A DNA stretch of 64,000 nucleotides from Planctomycetota bacterium (GTDB lineage Bacteria > Planctomycetota > B15-G4 > JADJEK01). The stretch is from contig JBGAIQ010000009.1 of assembly GCA_044225365.1 (NCBI GenBank), forward strand, positions 96,462-160,461, in the 5' to 3' direction. Positions 953 to 64,000 of the stretch are shown piece after piece. The position numbers and the translations under genes are program-made. The notes under the pieces were generated by a model. That model ran no database searches. It had not been told where the DNA came from and saw only the letters and a list, made by a program, of their open reading frames with translations. Each line of letters begins with the position of its first letter. Positions within the stretch are counted from its first letter, which is position 1.

Positions 953-1771
953 TCAGTGTCCTTGCTTCGTCCGAGTGTGTCGGCACTCGCAAGGGCTCTC
1001 GGCCATGTCGAGGAACCCCGCCAAACGGTCCGCATGTTCCTTGATGTCGTTCATTGCCTTCTGCATCGTCGGATGCTCGATGGATGTCGCAGGAATCGGT
1101 TTACCGTCTCGGCCGGGCGCTGTCGGTCCGGTCAAGGAATAACCATCTCCAATGACGGTGACCCGGGTCAGCTTTGGATCCGATGTATCCGGCACGTCGT
1201 GCGTCGGCTGACTCAGCATTCCATTGTGGACGACATCCGCCCACAGCATGATCGTGACGCTGCCGAACTGGTACTGATTCCAGATCTCGTTGATGATTCG
1301 CTTCCTCTGCAGTTCCCATTTCTCCTTCGCGTCGACATACGCCGCCATCGAATCATGCGTCATGAACGACTTGATTCCAGCGAGCGAGTTGAGCGCGTTT
1401 TGTAGGAAACGCTCCACGAAGGAGTACAAGAGCACGGCGTGGACCATTTCGTGGAAGTAGGCGGACTCCGTGATTCCTTTTCCAACCACTCTCAGCGTCT
1501 TATCAGGAGCCATGACGCTGGAATTCAGGGCTGCGATCTGCACCTTGATGCTGAAATCGGAATCTCCCGAGTGGGAGGTCCTCGCGTGATCCGTCTCGGC
1601 CGGATAGCACGGCGGATCCATCACGGGATTCACGTAGACGTACTTCTCGGAGTAGATGTCCACGCTGTCGAGCTCGGTGACGCCAAAGACCAGGCCTCCC
1701 AGCGCCTCCGAGAAGGCGACGCCAGCCAACTTCGGTCGCTGGATCTCACCGAGCACCCGACCGACCGTGCA
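953..1771 (-). other. C-terminal variable tip of the RHS protein: 272-aa putative zinc-metallopeptidase (HExxH) toxin domain
   Basis: This is the sequence after DPSGL. HEMVH is encoded at 1439-1453 (checked by reverse complement: CAC GAA ATG GTC CAC). Local GC drops: hand counts give 32/60 G+C for lines 1441-1500 and 1501-1560, against 41/60 for 3001-3060 in the repeat core. Confidence 0.6.
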
Positions 1772-4978: not shown

Positions 4979-5096
4979 CGGGAATCCTCGAAGCGGTGGC
5001 GATGGTCGGGACCACCTGGGACGAGCGAGGATGCCGCGGCGACGTCACGCGGGATTCACGACTTTTTTTCCGTCCGTGGACGCCGCGGCGAACCGA

Positions 5097-8000: not shown

Positions 8001-8762
8001 CGGATTGAATCCCGTGAGGCACTCGTAGGCGGTGACGCCGAGCGAGTAGAGGTCGGTCGCCTTGCCGATCGGCCCGCTCGCGATCTGCTCGGGCGACGAA
8101 TACGCGGCGCTGCCGACGAACGTGCCGGGCAGCGAGATCTCCGTCCCCGGCTCCACGAGCCGCGAGAGTCCGAGATCGACGATGTGGAGATGGTCCTCGG
8201 CGTCGAGGAACAGGTTCCCGGGTTTGATGTCCCGGTGCAGGATGTCGTGCTCGTGGAGCGCCGCGAGCGCCGCGACGCCCTGTCGATAGACGTGGAACGC
8301 TCGGCTCTCGCTCATCCTCCCGTCGTCGTCGAGGACCTTCGAGAGCGTGCGCCCTCGCAGATACTCCATGACGATGAAGTGGAGCGTCTCGCCGCCCACC
8401 TTCTCGCTGCCGACGTCGTAGGTCGCGACCACGTTCTCGTGCTTGATCGCGAGGCCGACCCCGGCTTCGCGTTTGAATCGCCGGAGGATGTCCTCGTCGG
8501 CCGCGAGGTGCGGATGCAGGATCTTGAGCGCGACCTCGACGCCCACGCGCAGACCCTTCTTCGCCTTCACCACCTCGGCGAGGAAGACCGTTCCCATGCC
8601 GCCCGCGCCAAGGCGCTTGACGACGCGGTAGTTCTTGATGGTCTTGCCCTCGAGATCGTTCACGCACGTACTTTCGTTGTCAGGATCGAAGCTGGCGATT
8701 ATAGTCCGTGGCAGCGTAGGGCAAGCGTAAGCGATTGCGAGCGCGCTTTTAACGCACAGCAA
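5097..8762 (-). CDS. Ser/Thr protein kinase fused to a P-loop NTPase (STAND-like) and TPR repeats
   Basis: Kinase motifs are LGAGGMGTVFLAEV, ALKIL, HRDIKPGNLFLD, DLGLSR and GSAAYSSPEQ. A P-loop (VVVTGETGIGKSRL) follows, then a long helical-repeat C-terminal half. The true start may be GTG at 8663 (VNDLEGKTIKNYRV), which leaves a 112-nt divergent intergenic region with cysS. Confidence 0.85.
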   Translation of the reverse strand: MLCVKSALAIAYACPTLPRTIIASFDPDNESTCVNDLEGKTIKNYRVVKRLGAGGMGTVFLAEVVKAKKGLRVGVEVALKILHPHLAADEDILRRFKREAGVGLAIKHENVVATYDVGSEKVGGETLHFIVMEYLRGRTLSKVLDDDGRMSESRAFHVYRQGVAALAALHEHDILHRDIKPGNLFLDAEDHLHIVDLGLSRLVEPGTEISLPGTFVGSAAYSSPEQIASGPIGKATDLYSLGVTAYECLTGFNPFHGPDLPSTMANQTRLVPRPVSAFAPDVSYFFERVVAQALEKDPARRLQPASRLLRILEEREESDWWKAYVEGEAMEAHLSRSRRRLRVRRATRVYGRDAARGALVDALRTAAVARSGRVVVVTGETGIGKSRLIDSALESEEIEPLGAQVLVSRFLDQAAATPYYALNEALLMALGVDAVPRADRTRVLAEKLRENLPERRVFADAFASLVLGEGGAGVASGGTNAPGASALAGSSAAKQLPPEAVPALYAEVLRTLSVRSPIFLVIEEIQWADRGSLRALLALASTLAVFPIAIVLTARESALAETMPGEPPSAPFFKKLFELKEALHVTLERLDDTAVRSVLRDVGVPPALLKSLGKRLHEASEGNPGFLFALIDDLERRGKLRSIKPAELKRLPLPKSVLDLLARRLEDIDAEAKRFLEFASVFGARFKPEPVIEGLGLDLLKASEVLSRLTQRYHLVRSFDDAYRFDHHLLRERVYLGIDPALRREYHLTVAQIHARSSTDPHAATRANYEAGIHFSFAEAHSRAARYLIGAVDFCEDRNLHERAQRLADKALDHLSQVSDDDATIVASDRVALFLGAASVYGHLGQRARQGELLRSAARVALTANDDRRIAQVEVELAAYDSSTGRVFAALQHCERSREAARRAGDLALEARSLRVEAAVLETLGQTDYDDELKRADELAAAAGDELGRAYGFLIFGQLYLATDRLELALETQKQALALFERLEDQRGRGRAFFQLARTYRELGDLERAEKSADAALTIAEANSDQALKARALYVSGELAMRARRHAEARARLERALDLFKMTSDAPFEVYTHVALALLFIANQNPERDPAVAATYAASGVAIAQKYELARQEAYAYAALAVAYLAQGKSKFALAVSKKGMKFLETHQAARKRQAELSFIHYRCLKAIDREDEAREFLVRARDLVLERSTGIEDAQRREAFLTSDLFNAAVVREADRVLRS

Positions 8763-8775
8763 ACGGCAAAACCCA

Positions 8776-10203
8776 GTGATCCGCTTCTACAACACACTTT
8801 CGCGTCAGATCGAGGAGTTCGTCCCGCAGGAGAAGGGCAAGGTCCGCATGTACAACTGCGGCCCGACCGTCTACTCCAACCCCCACATCGGGAACTACCG
8901 CGCCTATGCGTTCTGCGATCTCCTGCGCCGCGTGCTCGAGATGGCGGGTTACTCCGTCACCCAGATCATGAACATCACGGACGTCGGGCACCTGCGCGAC
9001 GAGCGCAACGACGCCGGCGACGACCGGATGGAAGCGGCCGCGCGCGCGGAGCGGGTCGATCCGCAAACGATCGCGAAGCGCTACACCGATGAGTTCTTCG
9101 CCGGTCTCGAACTGCTCGGCATTCGCCGAGCGCACGAGCATCCGCGCGCTTCCGACAACGTGAAGCAGATGATCGAGATCATCGAATCGTTGATCGCGAA
9201 GGGCTTCGCCTACGTCGTCGATCACGAGGTCTACTTCGACGTGCCGAAGTTCCACGGCTACGGCAAGCTCTCCGGCAACGTCGGCGAAGAGGTCGAAGCC
9301 GGCGCTGGCGAGCGCGTCGCCGCCTCGGTCCTCGCGAAGAAACACGACAAGCGCGACTTCGCGCTGTGGAAGCACGATCCCGCGCATCTCCAGCAATGGG
9401 ATTCACCGTGGGGCCGCGGATTCCCGGGCTGGCACATCGAATGCTCGGCGATGGCGCGCCGCTATCTCGGCGACACGCTCGACATCCACACCGGCGGCAT
9501 CGACAACATGTTCCCGCACCACGAGTGCGAGATCGCGCAGAGCGAGGCATTCACGGGCAAGCCGTTCGTGCGCTACTGGCTCCACGCGGCGCACCTCGTG
9601 CTCGAAGGCGAGAAGATGTCGAAGTCGCTCGGCAACGTCCTGTTGCCGAGCGACCTCGTGAAGGACGGCGTGCCGGCGCGCGCGATCCGGTTCTACTTGC
9701 AGTCGGTGCACTACCGGCAGCCGATGAACTTCACGCGCGAAGAGTTGAAAGCGAAGTCCGCCGCGCTCGAGCGACTCCTCAACTTCTACGACGACATGCG
9801 GCATCGCGAGAAGAGCGGGAGCGACGCGCCGGTCACGGATTCGTTCCGCGCGCTCGTCGACACGGCCGCCGCACGCTTCCGCGATTGCCTCTACGACGAC
9901 CTCAATTCGTCCGGCGCGCTCGGTGCGATCTTCGAGATGATGAACGCCGTGAACGCGGCGTCGCCCGGAAAGGTCGGCGCCGCCCTCGTCACGAAGTTCC
10001 TGCGCGAGGCCGACTCGATCCTCGGCGTGCTGCCAATGGACACGCTCGATCTCGAATCGGAGATCGAAGCGAAGATCGCGCAGCGCGAAGCGGCGCGGAA
10101 GGCTCGCGATTTCAAGCTCTCCGACTCGATCCGCGACGAACTGCTCGCGCGCGGCATCACGCTGCTCGACACACCGCAAGGCGTGCGTTGGCGCAAATCT
10201 TGA
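8776..10203 (+). CDS. cysS: cysteine--tRNA ligase
   Basis: GTG start. Motifs are [18 protein letters not shown] (HIGH-type) and KMSKSLGN (KMSKS), with the expected overall class I CysRS layout. Confidence 0.95.
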
Positions 10204-50194: not shown

Positions 50195-52166
<1,972 letters not shown>

Positions 52167-52167
<1 letters not shown>

Positions 52168-52754
52168 TACGACAGCGCGGGCCGCGAGAGGATCCCGGCC
52201 TCGATCTCGGCGACGAGCGCCGACGAACGCAAGCGCGTCACGATCGCGTAGGCGAATTCGAACGCCGTTCCCGGCGCCTGGCTGGTCAGGACATCGCCGT
52301 CGCAGACGACGCGTTCGCCCGCGTCGACCGCAACGCCAGCCGCCCTCAATTCATCCCGCACCGCGGGATGGCTCGTCACCCGGCGTCCGTGAAGGAGACC
52401 GGCGCGGAGGAGGACGATCGGCGCGGCGCAGATGGCGGCGACGAGCTTGCCGGCCGCCGCATGGTTGCGCAGCAGAGCGAGCACACGCTCGTCCTCGCGC
52501 ATCGCCTTCGCACCCGGAGCGCCGCCCGGCACCACGACGGCGTCGAAGAGCGGCGTGGCGTCCACTGTGCGGGCCAGGAGTTCGTCGAGCGTGATGTCGG
52601 GAACGAGGACGACGCCGCGCGAAGCGCGAACCGCGCCGGGATGGAGCCCTGCCACTGTGACGTCGATCGTCGCGCGACGCAATACGTCGATCACGGTGAC
52701 GGCTTCGATCTCCTCGGAGCCGTCTGCGATCAGAACGAGGGCGCGCGGATTCAC
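52167..52754 (-). CDS. DJ-1/PfpI/YajL family protein
   Basis: Motifs are ALVLIADGSEEIEAVTVIDVLRRA, DAVVVPGGAPGA and KLVAAICAAPIVLLRAGLL (nucleophile Cys), with TSQAPGTAFEFA. Confidence 0.85.
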
Positions 52755-52767
52755 GCGAAGGACGCGA

Positions 52768-54633
52768 TCAGAACGGCAGCGTGAGCTCGAGCATCAGCGC
52801 CGTTCGATTCTCCGGCGCCAATCCGCGCGCGCCGCCCAGGGCGTTCGCCGCGTTCGACCGTGTCGCACCCTCGCCGCTGCGCACCATCTTCTCGAGCGCA
52901 CGGAGCGTATCCGGGTTGCCCGCGTTCTTCGCGAGGATGCCCCGCAGGGCGTACGCCGCGGCGACGTGCGCCTCGGGGGACGCCGCCGCATCGCGCAAGA
53001 GCGCGAGCGCCGGGGCTTCGCCGTCGGCATGCCCGAGCTTGGAGAGCGCCACCATGGCCGGAACGCGGACCACGTCGTCGCGCTCGATCGCGGCGATCAA
53101 TGCGCGGCCCGCGGGCGCCAACGCGCCGCCGTCCATCGCCGCGAGAGCGAGCGCCGCCCGCCGCGAGAATTGCTCGGCCTCCATGCGTTCATCGTTGAGC
53201 GCGGCCTTCTCGAAGGCGGCGTCGTAGGCAGGCTTCAGGATCGCCCCGGACTTGATCGGTGCGGGCACGATCGCCGCGACCTTGTCGCCGAACAGGCTCT
53301 GCATGCGATCGCGATCGGCTTCGTCGACGACGAGGATGACGGGCAACGTCGCGGTGCGGACGTCGCGCTTCAGACTCGCGATGATCTGGTCGGCCTTCAC
53401 GTCGGAGACCGTCGAGCGAATCACGACGGCGTCCTTGATCGGCGGCTCCTTCGCGCGGACGAGCCCCATCGCGCCGGTCTCGGCCGTGATGGCGACGACG
53501 CGAAGCGACTGCGTCGCCGCGACGATCGAGTTGCGCTCAGCGGCATCGGGATCGATCACGAGCACCTGGCGCGTCGCGCTCTCGGACACCGCGTCACCGA
53601 GCGTCGCGACGATCTGCGGCGTCGGCTGGCCGGCGAGAGACAGGGCCGCGAGATAGCGCAGTCGCTTGTCGCCGCTGTTCTGCGCGAGGTCACTCGCACC
53701 ATTCACGTTCTCGGCCTTCGGCGCTTCGACTGCGGGAACATCGATCTGCGCGCCACCGAGGCGGAGCAGATCCTCGAGACGCGGCAGCGCCTTGTCCCAG
53801 CCGGCCGGGCCGACGACATCGCCGCCGCCCCGAATCACCTTGTTCAGCGCTTCGTAGGCCTGCGTCAGCGTCGCCTGCGCGGCGAGATTGGCCGGATCGA
53901 GTCGGAGGGCCCACTCGGCGTACATCTTGGCGTTCGCGGCGTTCGCCAGATTCGGCGTCGCCTCGCGATCCATCACCCGATGACCATTCCAGAAGTAGAC
54001 GTGGACCTTGCCATCGGCGCCCGCCGGCTGAGCGCGGCCACCCGCAAGGCACTCGTTGGCGGCGGTGAGCAGAGCCCCCGCGGCGGAACCCCCGGCTCCG
54101 GGCGCCATCGCGGCGAGCGCCTTGCTGGCCTCGGAGCGGGCGATCGGGTCGGAGTCGTGCTGCGCGATCGCGCCGAGCGCGGCCGCGGCTTCGACCGCGT
54201 TGACCTGCCCGAGCGTGATCACGAGGTTGCGCCGCACCATCGCGTCCTTCGATTGCAGCCCAGCGATCATCGCCGCGACCGAGTCGCTGCCGAGTCGCTT
54301 GAGGGCCATCACCGCTTGAGCGCGGGCGTCGTTGTCGGCGTTCGAACCGATCCAGCGCAGGAGCGCAGCGACGCCGCGTCCTCCATACTGCTTGCCCAAG
54401 GTCTCGAGGGCCGCGCGACGCGCGTTCCATTGACCCGTCGCAGCGTCTTCCGCGAGTTTCGCGAGGTCGCCGTCGATCGGGGCATCCGTCCAGGAAATCG
54501 CCGCGACCGGCGCGGCGTCGCCGCCCTTCTTGTCCGCAGCATCCGCGGCAGCATCCTGCGCGAAGGCATTCGCCCCGGCGAGAAGTGCGACGGCGATCAG
54601 GGACGACAAAGCCTTGCGGGTGATCGGAACCAT
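52768..54633 (-). CDS. secreted HEAT-repeat protein
   Basis: Start MVPITRKALSSLIAVALLAGANAFAQ at 54633 (CAT at 54631-54633). HEAT/PBS-lyase-like units include DARAQAVMALKRLG, DAMVRRNLVITLGQV, DPIARSEASKALAAM and ATRSNAANALGGA. Confidence 0.65.
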   Translation of the reverse strand: MVPITRKALSSLIAVALLAGANAFAQDAAADAADKKGGDAAPVAAISWTDAPIDGDLAKLAEDAATGQWNARRAALETLGKQYGGRGVAALLRWIGSNADNDARAQAVMALKRLGSDSVAAMIAGLQSKDAMVRRNLVITLGQVNAVEAAAALGAIAQHDSDPIARSEASKALAAMAPGAGGSAAGALLTAANECLAGGRAQPAGADGKVHVYFWNGHRVMDREATPNLANAANAKMYAEWALRLDPANLAAQATLTQAYEALNKVIRGGGDVVGPAGWDKALPRLEDLLRLGGAQIDVPAVEAPKAENVNGASDLAQNSGDKRLRYLAALSLAGQPTPQIVATLGDAVSESATRQVLVIDPDAAERNSIVAATQSLRVVAITAETGAMGLVRAKEPPIKDAVVIRSTVSDVKADQIIASLKRDVRTATLPVILVVDEADRDRMQSLFGDKVAAIVPAPIKSGAILKPAYDAAFEKAALNDERMEAEQFSRRAALALAAMDGGALAPAGRALIAAIERDDVVRVPAMVALSKLGHADGEAPALALLRDAAASPEAHVAAAYALRGILAKNAGNPDTLRALEKMVRSGEGATRSNAANALGGARGLAPENRTALMLELTLPF

Positions 54634-54932
54634 CCTGCGGACCTCCCAGACTGCGAAGTTCTGGACTGGCGTGGACCTCGCACGCGCGTTCGCAGCGAAC
54701 CCGGCACTTCCCGGATCCATCCGCCACGACTGCGCACGATGCGCGACATCGAATTCCGCACTCCAAATCACGATACGTGTTTCGGCGAATGCGGAAAGCG
54801 CGCGATTAGAGCGGTGACCTTGGAAACGATCAAGCGAAACCTCCTCGTGTCCGCCGTTTGGCGTGCGAGGCGACGCGCGCGTCGTCGTTTACCGTCCGGA
54901 TCGGCAGCGGCAACGAGGTGAACTCGGATTCT

Positions 54933-54990
54933 GGACCGCCGGGCTCTACCCGACATCGTATGGGAAATGCCGGGCAGAGCCCGGCGGTCC
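54933..54990 (-). repeat. 24-bp-stem GC-rich hairpin (REP-like element) in the sodC 3' region
   Basis: The arms are 54933-54956 and 54967-54990 with a 10-nt loop. On the minus-strand RNA all 24 positions pair, two of them as G-U wobbles. On the plus-strand RNA those two would be A-C mismatches. It begins 25 nt after the sodC stop. One arm is identical to 60282-60305. Confidence 0.75.
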
Positions 54991-55015
54991 AATTGCCCGG
55001 CGGCCCGACTTCCCC

Positions 55016-55573
55016 TCACTTCGCAGGATTCGCGATTCCGATCACGCCGGCCGCGATGCGTGCACCGGCGTTACCCGTCGGCTGCGTCTTGAAGTCGTCG
55101 GCGTCGGCGTGGACGATCATGCCGCGGCCGTAGATCGAGTTCGGGCCGGTGAGGCGAAGTTGCTTGTCGACGCGCGAGTACTTCGCCGTGCCATCGGCGC
55201 CCGCCTCGAGATTGCCGAGATCACCGGCGTGGCGCACGGCATCCTCGGGCGCGCCGTGATTCTGGGCGCCGGGATTGAAGTGGCCGCCGGTGCACTTGCC
55301 GTCGGCGCAATCGAGGTCGCCCCATTCGTGGACGTGGAACCCGTGCTTGCCGGGCTTCAGACCATGGATCTCGGCTTCGATGAGAACGCCAGCCTCGCCG
55401 GGTTGCTCGGTGAAGTGGATCGTTCCCGTGACTTCGCTCCCAGAGCGCGGCGACAACACGCAGATCGCGCGGGCAGCCGGCTTGCTGTCCTTCGTATCGG
55501 TTTGCGTCATCGCGATACCTGCAGCGAGGGCGAAACCGGCGACGAGACCGAAGAGCATCGACTTCGAATGCAT
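55016..55573 (-). CDS. sodC: Cu/Zn superoxide dismutase (periplasmic)
   Basis: Start MHSKSMLFGLVAGFALAAGIA at 55573 (CAT at 55571-55573). Motifs are HGFHVHEWGDLDCADGKCTGGHFNP, HAGDLGNLEA and GMIVHADADD. Confidence 0.9.
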   Translation of the reverse strand: MHSKSMLFGLVAGFALAAGIAMTQTDTKDSKPAARAICVLSPRSGSEVTGTIHFTEQPGEAGVLIEAEIHGLKPGKHGFHVHEWGDLDCADGKCTGGHFNPGAQNHGAPEDAVRHAGDLGNLEAGADGTAKYSRVDKQLRLTGPNSIYGRGMIVHADADDFKTQPTGNAGARIAAGVIGIANPAK

Positions 55574-55775
55574 GATCCTGATTCCTCTGTAGAGCGCGGC
55601 GAGCGCCGCGAATCGCGGAGCGTGCCCAAAAGTGTAGGAAGATCGCGGACGAATCGCGCTACAAGATGTCGCTCGGTCGCCCAATCGCTTCGATCGCGAA
55701 ACCGAGCCTCATCGCGGCGCGACGACTCGTCACGATAGCGCGGAAATCCAACCCTGACTCCACGGGAGATCCTCG

Positions 55776-57161
55776 ATGGCACCGGTCCTCCAGTTCCTCG
55801 GCGCCGCCGGTTGCGTGACGGGATCGAAGTACCTGCTGTACGCGAATGGTCAGGAGGTGCTCGTCGACGCCGGGCTCTTCCAGGGCGAGCGCGAGTTGCG
55901 CGAGCGCAACTGGGACCGCATGCCGCTCGATCCGAAGAAGATCGATGCGATCGTCCTCACCCATGGTCACATCGACCACGTGGGGTACCTGCCGCGCCTC
56001 GTGAAGTTCGGCTACCGGGGGCCCGTGATCTGCACCGAAGCGACGCGCGCGCTGCTCCAGATCCTGCTCCCCGACTCGGCGCGGATCCAGGAGGAAGAGG
56101 CCGAGTACGCCAACAAGAAAGGTTACTCGCGCCACAAGCCCGCACTGCCGCTGTACACCGAGGACGATGCGAACCGCGCGCTCGGCCTCGTTCGCACGAT
56201 GGACTATGGGAAGTCGTTCGAGGCAGCGCCTGGGATCACGGCGATCTTCCATCCCGCTGGACACATCGTCGGCTCAGCCTTCGTCGAGATGCGTGCAGAA
56301 GAGCGCACGATCCTCTTCTCCGGCGACATCGGCGGCTACGACTCCGAGTTCATGAAGCCACCCGCGCCGCTCCCCGCGGCGTTCGACTACTTGTTGGTCG
56401 AATCGACGTACGGCGGGCGCATCGAGGAGGAGCCGCCGATTGGCGATCAACTGGAGAAGCTCCTCGGTCCCGTCCTCCGCGCGGGCGGAGTCGTCGTGAT
56501 CCCTGCATTCGCCGTCGGCCGTACCACGATCGTGCTCTACCACCTGCGCAAACTGATGGAATGCGGCAAGCTTCCGAACGTGAAGGTCTTCGTCGACAGC
56601 CCGATGGCGACCGATGCCGTCGAGATCTACCAGAAGTTCTCGTCCGAGCTCAATCTGCGCCCCGAAGAGCTCCGCGACGACGACCGCTGCGCGATCCGCA
56701 CCCAGCAGGTGCGTCTCGTCCGCGATCGGGAGGGCTCGAAACTCATCAACAAGGAGCCCGGTCCCGCGATCATCGTCTCGGCGAACGGCATGGCGTCCGC
56801 CGGCCGCGTGCTCCATCATCTGCGGCATCGTCTTCCCGATCCGAAGAACCTCGTCCTCCTGGTCGGGTATCAGGCCGAAGGAACGCGTGGACGTCAGCTC
56901 GCGCAGGGCGCGAAGGAAGTGAAGTTGCTCGGCGACTACATTCCCGTTCGCGCGAAAGTCGCGTCGATCCGTGGGCTCTCCGCGCATGGCGACTGCGGCG
57001 AGATCGTGCGGTGGCTGAAGACGGCGCAGAGCCGTCCGCGGATGACGTTCCTCGTCCACGGCGAAACCGACGCCCTGAGAGCGATGGGCAAGAGCCTCGG
57101 GGACGAACTCGGCTGGGCGAGCCACGCCCCGCAATATCTAGAGAAGGTTCCCCTGGATTGA
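55776..57161 (+). CDS. metallo-beta-lactamase fold / beta-CASP family hydrolase (RNA-metabolising type)
   Basis: Motifs are LQFLGAAGCVTGSKYLL, LTHGHIDHVGYLP and ESTYGGR. Late motifs are SAHGD and LVHGE. Confidence 0.8.
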   Translation: MAPVLQFLGAAGCVTGSKYLLYANGQEVLVDAGLFQGERELRERNWDRMPLDPKKIDAIVLTHGHIDHVGYLPRLVKFGYRGPVICTEATRALLQILLPDSARIQEEEAEYANKKGYSRHKPALPLYTEDDANRALGLVRTMDYGKSFEAAPGITAIFHPAGHIVGSAFVEMRAEERTILFSGDIGGYDSEFMKPPAPLPAAFDYLLVESTYGGRIEEEPPIGDQLEKLLGPVLRAGGVVVIPAFAVGRTTIVLYHLRKLMECGKLPNVKVFVDSPMATDAVEIYQKFSSELNLRPEELRDDDRCAIRTQQVRLVRDREGSKLINKEPGPAIIVSANGMASAGRVLHHLRHRLPDPKNLVLLVGYQAEGTRGRQLAQGAKEVKLLGDYIPVRAKVASIRGLSAHGDCGEIVRWLKTAQSRPRMTFLVHGETDALRAMGKSLGDELGWASHAPQYLEKVPLD

Positions 57162-57171
57162 TCGCGCGCGT

Positions 57172-57218
57172 CGAAAACGAAACCGGCCGGTCCGCGCTTC
57201 TTGCGAACCGGCCGGTTC
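57172..57218 (-). terminator. hairpin terminator between convergent genes (best fit for the minus-strand dehydrogenase gene)
   Basis: An 11-bp stem AACCGGCCGGT (57182-57192) / ACCGGCCGGTT (57208-57218). On the minus strand it is followed by TCGTTTTCG (57172-57180). Confidence 0.5.
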
Positions 57219-57243
57219 CTCGTCTCACGTCACAGCTCTTCGA

Positions 57244-58809
57244 TCAGGGCTGCAGATCGACGCGGATGCCGTTGGACAATCCGACTCCGCCGGACGCGCC
57301 GGGATCGTCGATCGCCCACTGGCTGTAGAACGACACCGGGCCGCCGCCGCCCGCGACGGCGGGGATGTTGATCTCACCGTTCGCGTCGGTGAAGAGCGGA
57401 ACCGTGAGCACGATCGGGAAGCCGACCGTCAGCGTGCCGCCGAAGAACGGCGTCGCGCCCTGAGTGAACGAGAGGAAGAGCAGCGTCGGACGGCTCGGGG
57501 GACCATAGAGGAGCTGGTAGTCCGCCGTCTGACCCGTGCCCATCTGACCGCATGCGAACCAGTACGGCGTGCGACCGTTGCCGCCCACCTTGCCGCCGCC
57601 GAGATCCGCCATCGCCGTGACGGTCGGAACGATCTTGTAGAGTTCGCCACCCGTCTGATCGACGATCAGGATCTCGCCGCAGGCGTCGCGCCCGAAGCTC
57701 ACCGGATTGTTGATCGCGAGTGCGCCAGCGGGATCGAGTTCCGCCGTGCGATCGGTGAGGTTGCTCACCGCGCCGCCGACGATCTTGAATGACTGGATCT
57801 TGCCCGTGCAGTAGTCCGCGAAGAAGTACGTTCCGGCGAGATCCGGGATCGCGCAGCCGCGGTACACGACGCCGCCCGTGATCGAGCACGCGCCGCCGGT
57901 GTGCGAGTAGGTCAGGACAGGATACGTGAAGCTGGGGTCATTGCACAGGGGCGCCGACTGACAGGCCGCGAGGCCCGTGCAGTTGTTGCCTTCCATCACG
58001 CGCCAGCCGAAGTTGCGACCGCCCGTCGTACCCGACGCGACCCAGTCGACTTCCTCGATCAGGTTCTGGCCGACGTCCGCGATGAAGAGATCACCCGTCG
58101 CCGGATCGAAGTCCCAGCGCCACGGATTGCGCAGGCCGTAGTTGTAGATCAGCGGGTTGAAGGCCGTGTTGCCGACGAACGGATTCGTCGCTGGCGCCGA
58201 GGCTGGAACCGTGCTGACGTCGAGTCGCAGCATCTTGCCGAGCAGCGACATCTTGTTCTGCGCATTGCACGGCGGATCGTTGCCCGAACCGCCGTCGCCC
58301 TGACCCGAGTACAGGTAGCCATCGGGTCCGAACTGGAGGAGGCCACCGTTGTGGTTGGTGTTCGTCGGGTGCGGGATCGTCAGCATCGTCGTCGCGGAAC
58401 TGGCGTCCGCGACGTCGTTGACCATCGGATCGCCATTCACGTGATACCGGCGGATGTTGATCGTTCCGCCGGTGGCCGTGAAGTAGACGTAGAAGAGACC
58501 ACTCACTTCGTAGTTCGGGTCGAACGCCATCGAGAGCAGACCCTGCTCATTGCCACCTGCCATGCCCGACACGGTGACGAACGGCGCCGCGAGGAGCACG
58601 CCATCCTTAAGGATCTCGATGCGGCCCGTGTGCTGTTCGATCACGAAGATGCGATGCTTGTCACCTGGGGGCGAGCCCGCCCACACCGGCGCGGTGAATC
58701 CGCCTTGCAGCAGCACCGTCTTGAGAGGGGTCTGGGAGTGAAGGGTCGTGGCCATGAGCGCGCTGAGCGCGATGGCCGCGGTCAACGGACCGCGTTTCTG
58801 AGACAGCAT
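57244..58809 (-). CDS. PQQ-dependent sugar (glucose/sorbosone) dehydrogenase-like beta-propeller protein
   Basis: The N-terminus is signal-like. It has LLSMAFDPNY and HNGGLLQFGPDGYLYSGQGDGGSGNDP. There is a C-terminal extension of about 100 aa. Confidence 0.75.
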   Translation of the reverse strand: MLSQKRGPLTAAIALSALMATTLHSQTPLKTVLLQGGFTAPVWAGSPPGDKHRIFVIEQHTGRIEILKDGVLLAAPFVTVSGMAGGNEQGLLSMAFDPNYEVSGLFYVYFTATGGTINIRRYHVNGDPMVNDVADASSATTMLTIPHPTNTNHNGGLLQFGPDGYLYSGQGDGGSGNDPPCNAQNKMSLLGKMLRLDVSTVPASAPATNPFVGNTAFNPLIYNYGLRNPWRWDFDPATGDLFIADVGQNLIEEVDWVASGTTGGRNFGWRVMEGNNCTGLAACQSAPLCNDPSFTYPVLTYSHTGGACSITGGVVYRGCAIPDLAGTYFFADYCTGKIQSFKIVGGAVSNLTDRTAELDPAGALAINNPVSFGRDACGEILIVDQTGGELYKIVPTVTAMADLGGGKVGGNGRTPYWFACGQMGTGQTADYQLLYGPPSRPTLLFLSFTQGATPFFGGTLTVGFPIVLTVPLFTDANGEINIPAVAGGGGPVSFYSQWAIDDPGASGGVGLSNGIRVDLQP

Positions 58810-58981
58810 TCTTCTGTGCTCCTGGGATTCTGGTGGGGCTTCCGGGAATCGAGTTTCGTGGCTTGGCGTGAACCGTGAACGACTCGGGGCAGGTTCGCGC
58901 TGGAGAGAGGCTTGACTCGACCGGAGAGTCTACGTCGCCGCAGCTCTTCGGTCAACGTGACGTGGTACGCGCGCAGCTCGC

Positions 58982-60271
58982 GTGGGAAACGCAAGAATTC
59001 CGCATGACGGCGCGGCTCCAACCGCCGATGGCCAACCGCCGATCGCTCCTTATGATGCTCTCCCCCTAACGGAGCCCCGCGTGGACGATCTGCTGCGCTA
59101 TCGCGCCGAATTCCCCATCCTCGAGAAGTGCACCCATTTGATCTCGCATTCGCTCGGCGCGATGCCACGCGGCGTGTTCGATCGCATGCGCGACTACGCC
59201 GAGCTGTGGAACACCCGCGGGATCCGCGCCTGGGAAGAAGGCTGGTGGGACATGCCGCTCGCGGTCGGCGACCTGCTCGCGCCGATCCTCGGCCTCGGAT
59301 CCGACAAGGGTTCGATCGTGATGCATCAGAACGTCTCGGTCGCGATGTCCCTCATCCTCTCGTGCTTCGACATCGGCAAGCCACGGAACAAGATCGTCTA
59401 CTCCGACATGAATTTCCCGTCCGTGATGTACGTGAACGAAGCGCACAAGCGCCTCGGCGCGGAGATCCAGATGGTGAAGTCGGACGACGGCATCGGCGTC
59501 GACCTCGAGAAGCTGCTCGCCGCGATCGACGAACGCACATTGCTCGTGCCGATCTCCCACGTGCTGTTCCGTTCGGCGTTCATCCAGGACGCCGCAGCGA
59601 TCACGAAGCGCGCCCACGAAGTCGGCGCGATGGTCGTGCTCGACTGTTATCAATCGGCCGGCTGCGTCCCGATCGAGCTGAAGAAATGGAACGTCGACTT
59701 CGCCGTCGGCGGCAGCGTGAAGTGGCTCTGCGGCGGGCCGGGCGCGGGCTACCTCTACGTCCGCGAGGATCTGCGCGCGAAGCTCGAGCCGAAGATGACG
59801 GGCTGGGCCGCGCACGAGTCGCCGTTCGCGTTCGAGATCGGGCCGATCCACTACGCCTCGAGCATGCGCAGGTTCCTCCATGGCTCCCCCGCCATCCCGG
59901 CGCTCTACGCCGCGAAGACCGGCTACGAGATCGTCGGCAAGATCGGGATCGAGAAGATCCGTGCCAACTCGATGCGCCAGACCGCGCGCATGATCGCCAA
60001 GGCCGAAGACCTCGGGTTCACGGTGAAGTCCCCGAAGGATCCCGCACGCCGCGGCGGCGCGATCGTCGTCGACGTCCCGCACGGCAAGGCCGTCTGCCGC
60101 GAACTGAATCGCCGCGAGATCCTTTGTGACTACCGTCCGGGCGCTGGGATCCGCATGTCCGCGCACTTCTACAACACCGACGAAGAGATCGACCGCGCGA
60201 TCGCGGAGTGCCGCGCCATCCTCGAGTCGAAGGCTTACGAGAAGTTCCTGGACGCGAAAACCACCTATTGA
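58982..60271 (+). CDS. kynureninase-like PLP-dependent (class V aminotransferase fold) enzyme
   Basis: Motifs are HSLGAMP, FAVGGSVKWLCGGPGAGYLYV (Lys-containing PLP region), MTGWAAHESPFAF and RRGGAIVVD. The start is uncertain: GTG 58982, or a GTG near 59081. Confidence 0.65.
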   Translation: MGNARIPHDGAAPTADGQPPIAPYDALPLTEPRVDDLLRYRAEFPILEKCTHLISHSLGAMPRGVFDRMRDYAELWNTRGIRAWEEGWWDMPLAVGDLLAPILGLGSDKGSIVMHQNVSVAMSLILSCFDIGKPRNKIVYSDMNFPSVMYVNEAHKRLGAEIQMVKSDDGIGVDLEKLLAAIDERTLLVPISHVLFRSAFIQDAAAITKRAHEVGAMVVLDCYQSAGCVPIELKKWNVDFAVGGSVKWLCGGPGAGYLYVREDLRAKLEPKMTGWAAHESPFAFEIGPIHYASSMRRFLHGSPAIPALYAAKTGYEIVGKIGIEKIRANSMRQTARMIAKAEDLGFTVKSPKDPARRGGAIVVDVPHGKAVCRELNRREILCDYRPGAGIRMSAHFYNTDEEIDRAIAECRAILESKAYEKFLDAKTTY

Positions 60272-60281
60272 CCGCTCTGTC

Positions 60282-60336
60282 GGACCGCCGGGCTCTGCCC
60301 GGCATCTCGTGAAGGAACGGCGGGCGGATGCCGGCG
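60282..60336 (+). repeat. second copy of the 24-nt GC-rich repeat, with a truncated partner arm
   Basis: 60282-60305 (GGACCGCCGGGCTCTGCCCGGCAT) is identical to the reverse complement of 54967-54990. It starts 10 nt after the kynureninase-like stop. Only ATGCCGG of the expected partner arm remains (from 60328). After that the sequence becomes the leader of the Rpn-like repeat. Confidence 0.7.
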
Positions 60337-60389
60337 TTTCGATCGAGGCAGATCTTCCGTCACCACCTCGCGCGAAACGCGTCTCGACC

Positions 60390-61309
60390 ATGGAGAGAAC
60401 CATGGCGAGCGACGCGACGACCGACCACGATTTCGACGGCTTCTGGAAGGAACTCCTCGATGAGTTCCTGCCGGAGTTCCTCGCGTTCTTCGTGCCGGAT
60501 CTGCTTGGCGTGATCGACCTCTCACAGCCGATCGTCTCGCTCGAGAAGGAACTCCATGAACTGTTCCCCGAGGACCGCTCGGGCCGTGGGTTCGTCGACA
60601 AGCTGTTCAAGGTTGGATTACGCGATGGCGGGTCCGCCCGACTCCTCCTGCACATCGATGCACAAGGCGATCCCGAGGCGAGTTTCCCCGAGCGCATGTT
60701 TCGCTATCGCTATCGCCTGATCGACAAGTACCACCTGCCGATCTACTCCATCGCCGTCCTCGCCGATCGTGATCCGAACTGTTCCGGTTTCGGACGATCA
60801 AGCTGCTCGACTTCGCGGACCGCGTCGCCGAGCTCGAACGCAGCGAGAATCCCGTCGCGCTCTTGGCTCTCGCTCACCTGCGAACGCAGGCGACCCGCCC
60901 CGACCGTCGGCGGTTAGAATGGAAGAAGACGCTCCTTCGACTCGTGGTCGAGCGCGGCTTCCCGCGCCAGCGCATGATCCGAATGCTGCGGCTCGTCGAC
61001 TGGCTGATGACCCTGCCGCCCGACTTGAAACTGGAGTTCCGAAACGCCGTGAAAGAGATCGCCGAGGAGAAGACGATGCCGATCCTGATGGACATTGAGA
61101 TCGAGGCCATGGCCAGGGGTGCTCTGGGCGCGAAGCGGCACGACATCCGGCAGGTCCTTCGTGCACGGTTCGGCGAGTTGCCGCAGCGGATCGATCTCGC
61201 GCTCGAGGCGTGTGTCGAAGTCTCCGTGCTCGATCGCCTCGTCGTCGCCGCGGCCCTCGCGAAGGATCTCGCGGACTTCGAGCGCCAACTCGCGATCAGT
61301 TCGATGTGA
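60390..61309 (+). pseudogene. Rpn/DUF4351-type PD-(D/E)xK nuclease / putative transposase, copy 1 (frameshifted by internal deletion)
   Basis: The N-terminal frame reads (MERT)MASDATTDHDFDGFWKELLDEFLPEFLAFFVPDLL...LLLHIDAQGD...YSIAVLADRDPN. Relative to copy 2 a 46-nt segment is missing after 60781, which shifts the frame. The C-terminal DUF4351-like part (60863-61309, ...MPILMDIEIEAMARGALG...) is intact in another frame. Confidence 0.7.
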
Positions 61310-61664
61310 GGCTTCGCCCGAAATTGCAATCAGGGTGACCTGGATGAGAGTCCACGATTGCCCCCGTTGGGAATACGGGCTTGAAGATTGCGCCGATCAC
61401 CCGCGATCCGCGATCCATGAGGCGGCTTCGTGATGGGACACGGGCGGCCGGCGCGCACGCTCGCGGAAACGTCGCCTCCCGAATTCTCGATCCACCTCCA
61501 CGATCGACGCCACACGCCTGCAATTGCGGCAATCGACCGTAGGTGCACGATCATCGGTGATCGGCGCGGTGTGCGGCTTGCACCCTCCGACACGCGCCCT
61601 TTCATTTCTCGATGCCTCTCCTTCACCGCTGCGCCTTTTCTGCGTCACGTCCCTGGAGAAAACC

Positions 61665-62650
61665 ATGGCGAGCGACGCGACGACCGACCACGACTTCGAC
61701 GGCTTCTGGAAGGAACTGCTCGATGAGTTCCTGCCGGAGTTCCTCGCGTTCTTCGTGCCGGATCTGCTCGAACTCATCGATCTCTCGCAGCCAATCGAGT
61801 CGCTCGACAAAGAGCTTCATGAGTTGTTCCCCGAGGACCGCTCGGGCCGTGGGTTCGTGGACAAGCTCTTCAAGGTTGGACTACGCGATGGAGGGTCCGC
61901 ACGACTCCTTCTGCACATCGACGCGCAAGGCGATCCCGAGGCGAGTTTTCCCGAGCGCATGTTTCGCTATCGCTATCGCCTGATCGACAAGTACCACCTG
62001 CCGATCTACTCCATCGCCGTCCTCGCCGATCGCGATCCGAACTGGCGTCCCGATCGTTTCGAGCTGCGCTTCCACGACGATCTCGTTCTCTTCCGGTTTC
62101 GGACGATCAAGCTGCTCGACTTCGCGGACCGCGTCGCCGAGCTCGAACGCAGCGAGAATCCCGTCGCGCTCTTGGCTCTCGCTCACCTGCGAACGCAGGC
62201 GACCCGCCCCGACCGTCGGCGGTTAGAATGGAAGACGGCCTGTTCGTCTCGCAGGGTCGAGCGCGGCTTCCCGCGGCAACGCACGATCCGAATGCTGCGG
62301 CCTGCCGACTGGCTGATGACCCGCCGCCTGACCTGAAACTGGAGTTCCGAAACGCCGGGAAGAGCTCGCTGAGGAGAAGACGATGCCGACCCCGCGACAC
62401 GAGATCGAGGCCATGCCGCAAGGGCGAGGCCAAGGGCAATTGCTTGGCGAGGCCAGGGGTGCTTTGGGCGCGAAGCGGCACGACGATCCGGCAGGTCCTT
62501 CAGGCACGGTTCGGTGAGCGCCGTAGTGATCGATCTCGGTACCGGACTCGTGTGTCGAATCTCGGTGCTCGATCGCCTCGTCGTCGCCGCAGCCCTCGCG
62601 AAGGATCTCGCGGACTTCTGGAGCGCCAACTGTTGATCACCTCGATGTGA
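61665..62650 (+). pseudogene. Rpn/DUF4351-type PD-(D/E)xK nuclease / putative transposase, copy 2 (C-terminal part decayed)
   Basis: The N-terminal two-thirds is intact through ...RPDRRRLEWK. After that there are indels, a premature stop at 62334-62336 and an insertion of about 36 nt relative to copy 1. It shares the terminal sequence GATGTGAGGCTTCGCCC with copy 1. Confidence 0.7.
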
Positions 62651-62836
62651 GGCTTCGCCCATTACGATGTGGCGAGCGCGCGCGCTCTTTGCTTCCAGCT
62701 TCCTGTTTCTACTTTCCATCACCCACGCTTCGATAGACTTCCGCGTCTTCATCGACGGGGTCGAACCGATGCCGGACTCGAATCGCGCAGAGACATTGTT
62801 CCTCGGTTGGCTGAACTGCGTCGACGCCAGTATTGC

Positions 62837-64000
62837 ATGGACATCGAACATGTCGCCGCGCGAATCCCGGAATGCGCCGAAGAACTGCGCCGACTGCACG
62901 CCAACTGGGTTCTCAACAAGGTCCTCGAGCAGCGGCTCGGCGTGCGCAACATCTCGTCGTTCTCCGATAGGTTGCGCGAAGTTCGGCTCCGGCGCCGACC
63001 CGGGCGTTGCGGCTCGACGACGACGCCACGACGACGGAAAGCGCGCTCCGCTTCGAGCGACGACTCCAGCTCGCCGAACTCCGCTCGCGCGGCCCCTCGT
63101 CTGGGCGCTACCGCCCTCGAGGGCGAAATCGCGCAAGGCGGCATGGGCATCCGTGACGCACGTGTTCGACAAGGACCTGCGCCACAACCTCGCCGATGAA
63201 GGTGATGCTCCACGAACACGAGGCGAAGCAGGGCAGGCTCTCGCTTCCTCGAAGAAGCGCAGGTCACGGCCAGCTCGATGCCCGGCATCGTTCCGGTGCA
63301 CGAACTCGGCATCGACGAGCACGGCAAGGTCGTCTTCACGATGAAACTGGTGAAGGGGAAGAACTCGCCGACGTGTTCGAGATGACGGTGACCGGTGAAG
63401 AAGGTTGAACGTCACCGGCGCGCTGGATGTGCTCCAGCGGGTCGCAGGCGATGGCCTCGCACGAGAAAAAGGTGATCCACCGCGACATCAAGCCCGCGAA
63501 CATCATGGTCGGCCGGCACGGCGAGTGTACGTCATGGATTGGAAACCGTCGCGAGTCCTCGAAGAAGGACTTGAAGGACGTGCGCCTACGGACCGCGCAA
63601 TCGATCGTCGACACCGAGCGCCGCGAGAAAGGCCGGCGATGCGCCGGACTCGCCGCTGCTCACGTGGACGGCGACGCGGTCGGCACGCCGTCCTACATGC
63701 CGCTCGAGCAGGCCGAAGGCGATCTCGATTCGATCGGGCCGCAGTCGGACGTGTATGCGGTCGTGCGATGCTCTACCACCTGCTCGCGGGCATTCCGCCC
63801 TACGTCGAGCCGGGGACGTCGCCGAGCGGCGCGGATCCTCGATCGAGTGAAGCGAGCGCCGCCCGCCGCGATCCGCTCGCTGGCGAAGTCCGCGCCCATC
63901 GAGCTGATCATGATCTGCAGGAAGGCAATGGGCAGGAAAGCCGGAGAGCCTACGCCTCGATGGTCGATCTCGGCGACGACCTGCGTGCCTACCTCGAGCG
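62837..64000 (+). pseudogene. Ser/Thr protein kinase pseudogene (multiple frameshifts; runs off the right edge)
   Basis: Kinase motifs are scattered over different frames: LEGEIAQGGMG (about 63115), MKVMLH, PVHELGIDEHGKVVFTMKLVKG, VIHRDIKPANIMVG (HRDIKPAN at 63478-63501), VYVMDW, GTPSYMPLEQAEG (from 63682) and LYHLLAGIPPYVEPG. The 5' limit is uncertain. The confident part is 63100-64000. Confidence 0.7.

Follow-up and report, generated by a model that had tools for sequence, protein, structure and literature searches.

Disruption of both long forms in an old, converting tandem pair of Rpn-like nuclease genes from a Planctomycetota bacterium

In E. coli, the YhgA-like proteins RpnA-RpnE (PF04754, COG5464) were described as recombination-promoting nucleases (Kingston et al. 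2017, PMC5350276), and the catalytic residues D11, D63, E82-x-Q84 and R94 of RpnA have been tested by mutagenesis (PMC5350276). The long product of these genes, RpnL, is now regarded as a toxin and antiphage effector, and RpnS as its intragenic antitoxin; arrays of rpn genes formed by tandem direct duplication have also been described (Zhong et al. 2023, PMC10400941). In Rpn proteins, the RpnS Met is followed after 8-20 residues by four-amino-acid (12-nt) repeats, whose number varies among close relatives (PMC10400941).

The 64-kb stretch of DNA analysed here (the window) carries two rpn-like genes on its + strand, arranged head-to-tail with a period of 1263 nt and starting at ATG 60402 (copy 1) and ATG 61665 (copy 2). 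This arrangement, already proposed in the initial annotation, is borne out by the repeat alignment, in which the direct repeats 60379-60678 and 61642-61941 share 90% identity at a spacing of 1263 nt; the copies differ at 90 of 901 aligned columns. The duplicated unit starts at ~60340-60379, the repeat family being recognizable from 60379 and a weaker similarity reaching ~65 nt upstream in a four-way alignment. A Shine-Dalgarno-like GGAG (60392-60395) lies 6 nt 5′ of the copy 1 ATG, while the leader and Shine-Dalgarno sequence of copy 2 are contained in the inter-copy spacer (61310-61664). The N-terminal regions have diverged, and the peptides LLGVIDLSQPIVSLEKE and LLELIDLSQPIESLDKE, which had been quoted to illustrate this, were reproduced on translation. 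Positions 60782-60926 are nevertheless identical to 62091-62235, as previously claimed, and this 145-nt identity cannot be extended at either end. No further rpn-like copy or remnant was found in the window beyond copies 1 and 2, and promoter/terminator and Rfam scans returned nothing informative. We consider that the locus as a whole is best explained, with a probability of roughly 0.7, as an old rpn tandem pair that underwent repeated gene conversion and in which both long forms were disrupted. All the sequence-level statements of the initial annotation held, and its interpretation did so in part, several corrections being needed.

The assignment to the Rpn/YhgA-like family, with a DUF4351-type C-terminus, is supported indirectly by homologues, catalytic residues and fold. 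Neither the reconstructed 317-aa protein nor the intact relative P0001 gave a Pfam match even at E<=10, and the reconstructed protein matched no NCBIfam or PADLOC model. A profile search against the sequences of solved structures gave no match, including none to the solved RpnAS chain, and a Foldseek search of the model against the PDB gave nothing significant. PF14261 (DUF4351) had no direct match in the C-terminus encoded in the window or in the 77-aa frame described below. The earlier call of an Rpn protein, with a probable DUF4351 C-terminus, thus rests on homologues that match PF04754 and PF14261, and not on a direct Pfam match. Among the 214 full-length homologues found, P0009, P0026, P0029, P0055 and P0065 were matched by phmmer with E values of 1e-50 to 1e-63 over 90-97% of the query. 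PF04754 (YhgA/Rpn; Transposase_31) was matched by 38 of 65 aligned homologues, and PF14261 by 17 of the 65 aligned full-length homologues. P0055, P0065 and P0107 exceed the Pfam gathering scores (for PF04754, 26-29.5 bits against a cutoff of 21), their DUF4351 match covering residues ~247-311, which is the equivalent C-terminal region. Genome and metagenome contig scans recovered relatives only at 47% identity or less.

Both copies present the catalytic signature D12, D66, D86-x-Q88 and R98, corresponding to D11, D63, E82-x-Q84 and R94 of RpnA. All 65 homologues have D66, Q88 and R98, and almost all conserve D12 and position 86. The pairs D66/D63, D86/E82, Q88/Q84 and R98/R94 are also aligned by hhalign, in a weak match (E 0.043) to RpnA as a single-sequence target. 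The AF2 model has a pLDDT of 91 (88 for the N-terminus), and its N-terminal domain has a predicted PD-(D/E)xK (restriction-endonuclease-like) fold which, together with the aligned RpnA residues, agrees with the fold initially suspected. Regarding the former label of nuclease-transposase, the nuclease family is retained, while "transposase" is a historical name for what are now considered toxin-antitoxin/antiphage nucleases, a transposase role having been rejected in the literature (PMC10400941). An insertion sequence or transposon was also considered for the locus and discarded: positions 58000-64000 contain only scattered, weak (70-77%) inverted repeats, none of which flanks either copy.

Copy 1 (60402-61309, stop at 61307-61309) is frameshifted by a 46-nt deletion after position 60781, as alignment and translation confirm. 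The missing sequence, GCGTCCCGATCGTTTCGAGCTGCGCTTCCACGACGATCTCGTTCTC, is present in copy 2 at 62045-62090, and an intact 317-aa protein results when the 46 nt are put back. The deletion junction (60781/60782) removes the codons from W127 to ~L142, including a nearly invariant W-R-P, and leaves a 171-aa N-terminal ORF (60402-60917), which is annotated as a CDS in the source record (P0245). Residues 1-126 of this fragment are native and hold D12, D66, D86, Q88 and R98; the remainder is out of frame. No microhomology was found at the junction, nor any repeated k-mer flanking the 46-nt deletion. The lesion is too recent to have left a signature in the substitution pattern.

The C-terminus of copy 1 is intact, as stated in the initial annotation, and a 77-codon frame at 61076-61309 is open and untouched by the upstream frameshift. 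Its translation gives a DUF4351-type, RpnS-like product that we regard as a putative antitoxin. The frame is preceded by an internal Shine-Dalgarno sequence, GAGGAG (61064-61069), 6 nt before the internal ATG (GAGGAG-N6-ATG, 61064-61078). Of 59 related loci, 41 have an ATG at the corresponding codon of the alignment, and in 24 of these a GGAG, GAGG or AGGA core lies upstream. Judged from these sequence features, the C-terminal domain would begin at an internal start with its own ribosome-binding site, at the place where E. coli Rpn proteins have their internal start sites (PMC10400941). Thirteen residues after the internal Met (M241), copy 1 has a single four-amino-acid repeat unit, ARGA (61112-61123). 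Units beginning at this distance vary in number among close relatives, as in other Rpn proteins: one in copy 1, two (AKGE-AKGA) in copy 1 of L001, a related metagenome contig, three (AKGE-ALGE-AKGA) in P0242, and about four in the DNA of copy 2.

Copy 2 presents a different picture. Its ORF (61665-62336) encodes 223 aa, of which residues 1-190 are native, forming a complete PD-(D/E)xK core read in frame to 62235, and the last 33 are aberrant, ending at the TGA 62334-62336. This N-terminal part has no indels in 571 nt, and its comparison with L001 copy 2 gave a dN/dS of 0.015 (dS 0.23; Sd 17, Nd 1), which on sequence evidence indicates strong purifying selection; the lack of neutral decay makes the region a poor fit to a long-dead gene. 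The C-terminal part (62236-62650, with the equivalent of the stop, TGA, at 62648-62650) differs from copy 1 by 38 substitutions and 15 gap events, and its internal RpnS-like frame (62383-62517) is frameshifted. Nonsynonymous changes make up 12 of 26 in this part versus 4 of 28 in the N-terminus (Fisher P 0.016), and this proportion, together with the many indels, marks the C-terminus as apparently relaxed. The contrast initially described between an intact N-terminus and a C-terminus decayed by indels and by the stop is thus upheld, except for the 36 extra nucleotides at 62415-62450. These had been read as an insertion belonging to the decay and are instead a case of repeat-number variation: they comprise three further 12-nt AKGE-type units, now with +/-1 shifts, of the hypervariable four-amino-acid Rpn repeat (PMC10400941), comparable to AKGEAKGA in P0001 and AKGEALGEAKGA in P0242. 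Fold-back template switching, considered as the origin of the scrambled 27 nt that follow 62235, was rejected as unsupported, given that the hairpin did not exceed shuffled sequences (z -0.79) and no inverted repeat was detected. Downstream of copy 2 lies a kinase pseudogene with at least 10 frame changes, and from 62236 onwards the sequence is decayed without a break up to the window end.

The L001 contig, which comes from an independent JGI assembly (3300035183), contains the same tandem pair with copy-specific variants. Its copy 1 orthologue is intact (321 aa). At the protein level, the intact relatives are P0001 (321 aa) and P0242 (331 aa), the latter encoded on a 257-kb NCBI contig. The spacer of the window is orthologous to that of L001, with 77% identity, many indels and conserved blocks at 61340-61354 and 61407-61427. 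Both L001 copies have a 23-nt insertion in the leader that neither window copy has. The near-identity between the window copies exceeds the 145-nt patch: copy 1 has copy-2-type sequence over a tract of ~60687-60926 that includes the exact patch, with one mismatch at 60770 and the 46-nt gap inside. Between 60701 and 60910, copy 1 agrees with copy 2 against L001 copy 1 at 23 sites, has one state of its own, and at no site agrees with L001 copy 1; at 60755-60779, L001 copy 2 agrees with the state common to both window copies. A run of 17 consecutive variable sites at which copy 1 equals copy 2 was not reached in any of 200,000 permutations (P < 5e-6), and an identical run of at least 145 nt in none of 100,000. 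Within the patch, dS is 0 between copies 1 and 2 and 0.41 between copy 1 and L001 copy 1.

These three- and four-sequence site patterns, together with the permutation test, support gene conversion between the copies. The duplicates themselves are old, because dS between the window copies reaches 0.68 in codons 35-95 and the same pair occurs in the independent contig, so that conversion between old duplicates, as proposed in the initial annotation, accords with site patterns, permutations, dS and the L001 pair alike. Copy 2 (62091-62235) would be the donor, based on exact identity and site patterns, and the event would be recent; its direction and its timing are both judged from a single outgroup contig, which stops short of the 145-nt patch. 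It had also been suggested that one crossover within the patch would be enough to restore an intact gene. Joining 61665-62235 to 60927-61309 in silico does give an open 317-codon frame without interruption, but this is the reciprocal product, i.e., an excised 1309-bp circle or a triplication from unequal sister exchange. The loop-out chromosome would instead keep the copy 1 N-terminus and the copy 2 C-terminus and be doubly defective. Copy 1 would be repaired most simply if its 46-nt gap were filled by conversion with copy 2 as donor.

Based on these data, the following history may be proposed. The tandem rpn duplication would predate the split from the organism represented by L001, and the copies would have exchanged sequence repeatedly by gene conversion, the latest detectable event probably having transferred ~240-290 nt of copy 2 sequence to copy 1 (60687-60926). 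The 46-nt deletion would then have arisen inside this tract, frameshifting the long form of copy 1. By that time, the long form of copy 2 would already have lost its C-terminal third, whether through decay in situ or through fusion with an older array member that had itself decayed. The intact protein was presumably an N-terminal PD-(D/E)xK DNA endonuclease with a variable helical C-terminal domain, the latter also produced separately as the small RpnS; by homology to E. coli Rpn, the two products may act as toxin and antitoxin. As a net result, no full-length RpnL would be made, leaving the RpnS-like frame 61076-61309 and the truncated nuclease ORF 61665-62336. The former label of pseudogenes fits both long forms, which are disrupted in comparison with P0001 and P0242, but may be too strong for a locus in which the RpnS-like frame and its Shine-Dalgarno sequence are intact and the copy 2 N-terminus has the dN/dS given above.

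The fusion just mentioned is also the core of the alternative that survives best, although we judge it rather unlikely. Copy 2 would be a recent chimera, generated by unequal crossover or deletion in a longer array, that joins a functional N-terminus to an older, decayed C-terminus at breakpoint 62235/62236, the decayed block running on into the downstream kinase pseudogene. The switch at this point is indeed abrupt, from a perfect frame to 27 nt that are more scrambled than any others in the locus; the selection signature of the copy 2 N-terminus and the contiguous decay down to the window end, kinase included, are in line with it, and rpn arrays are reported to undergo fusions and losses (PMC10400941). 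Against this, the window contains no third copy or other remnant, and at 19 sites the C-terminus of copy 2 has the state of copy 1 where L001 copy 1 differs, which implies a long exchange; decay in place fits equally well.

Another explanation, which we find improbable, is that the function has been re-partitioned into two genes, copy 2 being a selected nuclease-only gene and copy 1 a stand-alone RpnS-type (DUF4351) gene. The 190 indel-free and selected N-terminal codons of copy 2, adjoining a C-terminus with 15 gap events, and the intact RpnS-like frame, Shine-Dalgarno sequence and ATG of copy 1 would be expected from it, and stand-alone RpnS/DUF4351 genes are documented (PMC10400941). Truncation of the RpnD tail yields a weakened, not a dead, protein; however, 45 residues were removed from RpnD, whereas copy 2 loses 127. 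E. coli RpnS works via the C-terminal domain that it has in common with RpnL (PMC10400941), and this domain is lacking in the copy 2 product. Moreover, the freshness of the N-terminus is equally explained by recent fusion or conversion, and the intact relative P0242 indicates that copy-2-type genes are normally full length. The fuller version, a working system made up of a selected truncated nuclease (61665-62336) and an orphan RpnS (61076-61309), plus an occasional full-length toxin through conversion of the 46-nt gap, we regard as more doubtful still.

There is little reason to attribute the lesions to assembly or sequencing artefacts, such as mis-joined strain variants, poor repeat consensus, or a collapsed or expanded repeat. 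The locus is repetitive, its indel-rich sequence reaches the window end, and no independent assembly of it was found, the Logan contig from SRR28480385 ending at 59115 and exact-product look-ups for the flanking gene, both copy ORFs, NusA (P0121) and P0242 giving no record. That contig is, however, 100.000% identical over the 7746 bp adjoining the locus, and the remaining 60 kb of the window has intact ORFs of up to 1600 codons. The indels are not of homopolymer type, and no repeated k-mer occurs at the 46-nt deletion. A tandem pair with variants specific to each copy is also found in the independent L001 assembly, and in the neutrally diverging spacer the ratio of indels to substitutions between the two assemblies is similar. 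In addition, the source contig is 161 kb long, and the window may thus stop short of its end. Finally, a programmed recombination-reset switch, in which complementary defective copies would form a silent reservoir that at low frequency gives rise again to an intact toxic nuclease gene, is hardly credible: an intact 317-codon gene can be reconstructed from the two halves, the 46-nt gap lies between identical flanks (to its left 95 nt, one of them mismatched, and to its right 145 nt) and conversion is demonstrable, but the lesions show no sign of design, being ordinary in type and unequal in age, the simple loop-out yields a defective chimera, relatives have plain intact genes, and the locus has neither a site-specific recombinase nor an invertible structure.

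Returning to the reading of an old, converting pair with both long forms disrupted, the locus adds to the Rpn toxin-antitoxin nucleases a divergent, Planctomycetota-associated subfamily that lies below Pfam detection and keeps the E. coli hallmarks of catalytic signature, internal start with ribosome-binding site, and variable 12-nt repeats. It clearly captures, in one natural locus, stages in the evolution of tandem rpn genes: duplication, repeat-number divergence, patchwise conversion in each of two lineages, and inactivation step by step. The selected N-terminus of copy 2, set against its decayed C-terminus, and the RpnS-like frame of copy 1 provide a small lead on the retention of antitoxin-only or nuclease-only remnants. 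The current understanding of the Rpn family is left unchanged.

Compared with E. coli RpnA-RpnE, the genes described here have the same architecture of ~300 aa, with an N-terminal PD-(D/E)xK core in which D...D...(E/D)-x-Q...R occurs at the same spacing, a conserved helical middle part and a variable helical C-terminal domain. They also have in common the conserved internal ATG and Shine-Dalgarno sequence at the start of that domain, the 12-nt repeats 8-20 residues after the Met, and the multi-copy and tandem occurrence. Unlike the E. coli proteins, they belong to a very divergent subfamily, as the absence of Pfam matches and the hhalign E value to RpnA indicate. The second acidic position (86) is D and not E as in RpnA, the C-terminal domain has 77 aa versus ~50 aa in RpnAS, whose solved chain gave no sequence match, and both long forms are disrupted. 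Local duplication of a whole or partial rpn gene is likewise found in rpnC-rpnCSs, rpnE-ypaA (rpnESs) and the rpn arrays (Zhong et al. 2023), in which stand-alone DUF4351-type small genes lie beside rpn genes and loss and fusion of neighbouring copies are reported. In E. coli, however, the small extra gene is downstream of an intact rpn gene, whereas here the surviving RpnS-like frame is upstream, within a frameshifted copy, and the downstream copy is without a C-terminal domain of its own. Concerted evolution by gene conversion is a general phenomenon among tandem or dispersed bacterial paralogues, and the locus resembles it in the near-identical tracts that form a mosaic in diverged paralogues, in the lineage-specific changes shared by both copies, and in the tracts that end where homology drops. 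Two differently broken, sequence-swapping Rpn copies are typical of this gene family and do not constitute a new kind of system. Nothing in the exchange is unusual in comparison with concerted evolution in general; since one partner is partly decayed, conversion may here either repair lesions or spread them.

In the Planctomycetota contig, two rpn-like genes are arranged head to tail on the + strand. A direct repeat (60379-60678 vs 61642-61941) with 90% identity is spaced by 1263 nt, and downstream of it the matching segments lie 1309 and then 1339-1341 nt apart. Based on pairwise alignment and direct string tests, copy 1 extends from the ATG at 60402 to the stop codon at 61307-61309, while copy 2 starts at the ATG at 61665, with a frame that is clean to 62235, and terminates at the TGA at 62334-62336. 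Following 60781, 46 nt that copy 2 has at 62045-62090 are missing from copy 1. The segment 60782-60926 is exactly identical to 62091-62235 and cannot be extended at either end; none of 100,000 permutations of the 90 mismatches over 901 aligned columns produced an identical run of at least 145 nt. An uninterrupted 317-codon frame is obtained when 61665-62235 is joined to 60927-61309, and likewise when the 46 nt are put back into copy 1. On the source contig, copy 2 is called as a 223-aa ORF and copy 1 as two fragments of 171 and 121 aa. The coordinates and sequence details of the initial annotation were accurate by the same alignment and string tests.

The reconstructed protein had no match in Pfam (even at E≤10), NCBIfam or PADLOC; thus, its family assignment was not to be assumed. 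A database search retrieved 214 homologues, almost all of 300-340 aa and with more than 90% of the query aligned. PF04754 (Transposase_31, YhgA-like) was matched by 38 and PF14261 (DUF4351) by 17 of 65 aligned homologues, and three full-length proteins (P0055, P0065 and P0107) matched both above the curated cutoffs, with PF04754 at residues ~50-110 and DUF4351 at ~247-311. Using mutagenesis, Kingston et al. (PMC5350276) showed that D11, D63, E82, Q84 and R94 of RpnA are required. In our homologue alignment, D66, Q88 and R98 are invariant and D12 and E86 nearly so; position 86 of the window protein is D. The profile comparison with E. coli RpnA was statistically weak (E 0.043) but still paired D66/D63, D86/E82, Q88/Q84 and R98/R94. 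The AlphaFold model of P0001, a close intact relative, was confident (pLDDT 91, pTM 0.80). Based on the domain matches of the homologues, the catalytic residues, their RpnA pairing and this model, we accepted the Rpn/DUF4351 assignment proposed initially, as a divergent subfamily of the Rpn/YhgA-like plus DUF4351 type.

P0001 (321 aa, intact, 93% identity) is encoded on L001, a 1723-bp JGI metagenome contig with the same head-to-tail order, in which a complete copy 1 is followed after 300 nt by copy 2, itself cut off by the contig end. Thus, the tandem structure of the window is real and predates the split of the two organisms. The alignment of the two window and two L001 copies showed mosaic site patterns. 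At 60518-60596, copy-specific variants pair each window copy with its L001 counterpart. At 60605-60662, window copy 2 is the only one to differ, L001 copy 2 having the same states as the copy 1 of either contig. Across 60701-60910, the window copies are identical and L001 copy 1 differs at 23 variable sites, one site is copy-1-specific and none has the orthologous pattern; L001 copy 2, which covers only 60755-60779 of this stretch, matches the window copies there. In the simplest reading of these patterns, window copy 1 would have acquired copy-2-type sequence across ~60687-60926. A run of 17 consecutive concordant sites was not reached in any of 200,000 permutations. In the patch, the dS of window copy 1 is 0 against window copy 2 and 0.41 against its L001 orthologue; between the window copies, the dS of codons 35-95 is 0.68. 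The proposed gene conversion between old duplicates is therefore supported by site patterns, permutations and dS alike. The 46 nt are present in the donor and absent from the recipient, which indicates that the deletion arose after or during conversion. Additionally, a 23-nt leader insertion common to both L001 copies (L001 20-46 and 1286-1312) and absent from both window copies directly duplicates GGAGAAATCCCGG immediately before the start codon, doubling the Shine-Dalgarno motif, and is further evidence of concerted evolution, independent of the first.

The deletion shifts the frame of copy 1 and removes the nearly invariant W127-R128-P129 together with three strands of the nuclease fold, leaving the RpnS-like frame untouched; because the orthologue is intact, this lesion is recent. 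Aligned with copy 1, the C-terminal part of copy 2 shows 38 substitutions and 15 gap events, and its internal small frame is broken. Among well-aligned substitutions, 12/26 are nonsynonymous in the C-terminus vs 4/28 in the N-terminus (Fisher P 0.016). The first 190 codons of copy 2 contain no indels and differ from L001 copy 2 by 17 synonymous and one nonsynonymous substitutions (dN/dS 0.015); thus, the N-terminus has not been drifting as long as the C-terminus. Three explanations remain: continued selection on the truncated nuclease ORF, a recent fusion at 62235/62236 that joined a functional N-terminus to an older, decayed member of the array, or recent replacement of the N-terminal sequence by that of an unseen paralogue. 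The sharp transition at the breakpoint and the heavily frameshifted Ser/Thr kinase gene downstream would fit a fusion to decayed sequence. Within 62186-62258, the scrambled 27 nt directly past the identical patch can pair with sequence ~40 nt upstream (CCTGCGAACGCAGGC / GCCTGTTCGTCTCGCAGG), which hinted at a fold-back template switch; this candidate was rejected, as the fold was not better than shuffled controls (z -0.79). That the lesions are assembly or sequencing artefacts is very improbable, given the long intact genes in the remaining 60 kb of the window, the 100.000% identity to Logan contig L002 (SRR28480385) across 7746 bp, the non-homopolymer type of the indels, the deletion without a flanking repeated word, the recurrence of the pair in L001 and a similar indel/substitution ratio in the neutral spacer compared between the two assemblies. 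L002 matches 51370-59115; it ends 1.3 kb short of the rpn pair, inside the start of a kynureninase-like gene, perhaps because coverage drops, the strain differs or the assembly graph branches there.

It had also been proposed that a single crossover in the patch rebuilds one intact gene. The good C-terminus belongs to the upstream copy 1 and the good N-terminus to the downstream copy 2. Intramolecular recombination leaves on the chromosome a chimera of copy-1 N-terminus and copy-2 C-terminus with both defects, and the intact gene is on the excised 1309-bp circle; alternatively, unequal sister exchange gives a triplication whose middle copy is intact. The proposal thus holds for the circle and the triplication but not for the loop-out product. 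The 46-nt gap, flanked by 95 nt (one mismatch) and 145 nt (no mismatch) of homology, would be repaired most directly through conversion with copy 2 as the donor.

The spacer between the copies is indel-rich, with 77% overall identity between the window and L001. Two spacer blocks, 61340-61354 (CTGGATGAGAGTCCA) and 61407-61427 (CGCGATCCATGAGGCGGCTTC), are identical in L001, the latter opening a short frame (MRRL...GT...AHAR) in both; they may have a regulatory role for copy 2, mark a small ORF or be fortuitous. Downstream lies a Ser/Thr protein kinase pseudogene (62800-64000, + strand, continuing past the window end). Its GxGGMG, VAMKVM, HRDIKPANIM, GTPSYMPLEQ and other motifs are distributed among all three frames, the frame changing at least 10 times, and a score against Pkinase was obtained for a single stretch of 22 residues only. 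Together with the C-terminus of copy 2, the pseudogene makes up one unbroken block of decayed sequence. On the - strand, an intact 1363-aa RHS-repeat/YD-shell protein (953-5044) adjoins an intact 1229-aa Ser/Thr kinase with AAA_16 ATPase and TPR domains (5097-8786). Elsewhere, other subfamily members are distributed across two or three reading frames in L012 (10001-10748), L019 (10001-10850; Gemmataceae MAG) and the JGI contigs L074 and L083, which could be pseudogenes or long-read errors, and tandem pairs ~2.1 kb apart occur in a Heyndrickxia genome (L034) and a metagenome contig (L089). Disruption and tandem duplication thus seem common in the family.

Zhong et al. (2023, PMC10400941) reported that Rpn proteins are toxin-antitoxin/antiphage systems, not transposases, in which the full-length nuclease RpnL is toxic and RpnS, the variable C-terminal domain produced from an internal translation start, binds and blocks it. 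Four-amino-acid repeats in their common domain, from 8-20 residues past the RpnS Met, differ in number among strains and determine RpnL-RpnS specificity; a separate DUF4351 gene is another possible form of RpnS, and rpn arrays originate by tandem direct duplication (PMC10400941). In copy 1, an ATG at 61076, preceded by GAGGAG at a distance of 6 nt, begins a 77-codon frame that is intact up to the stop codon. This internal ATG is kept at the aligned codon in 41/59 related loci, 24 of which have an upstream Shine-Dalgarno core, often GAGGAGGTGA. An A(K/R)G(E/A) unit lies 13 residues past the internal Met; copy 1 has one unit, its L001 orthologue two, the intact full-length relative P0242 three and copy 2 ~4. 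Given this variation, the "36-nt insertion" initially taken as decay of copy 2 instead consists of three additional 12-nt repeat units and is the kind of polymorphism that is normal for the Rpn family.

The finding is real, and its initial interpretation was largely right. What is new here is a divergent member of an already known Rpn type, only mildly unusual in that the truncated copy 2 bears an apparent signature of selection and a putative antitoxin-like frame survives in copy 1. The locus fits known Rpn biology, i.e., tandem duplication, repeat-number variation and loss or fusion, plus ordinary gene conversion, and all sequence-level hallmarks of the Rpn systems of Zhong et al. (2023) are also present in it.
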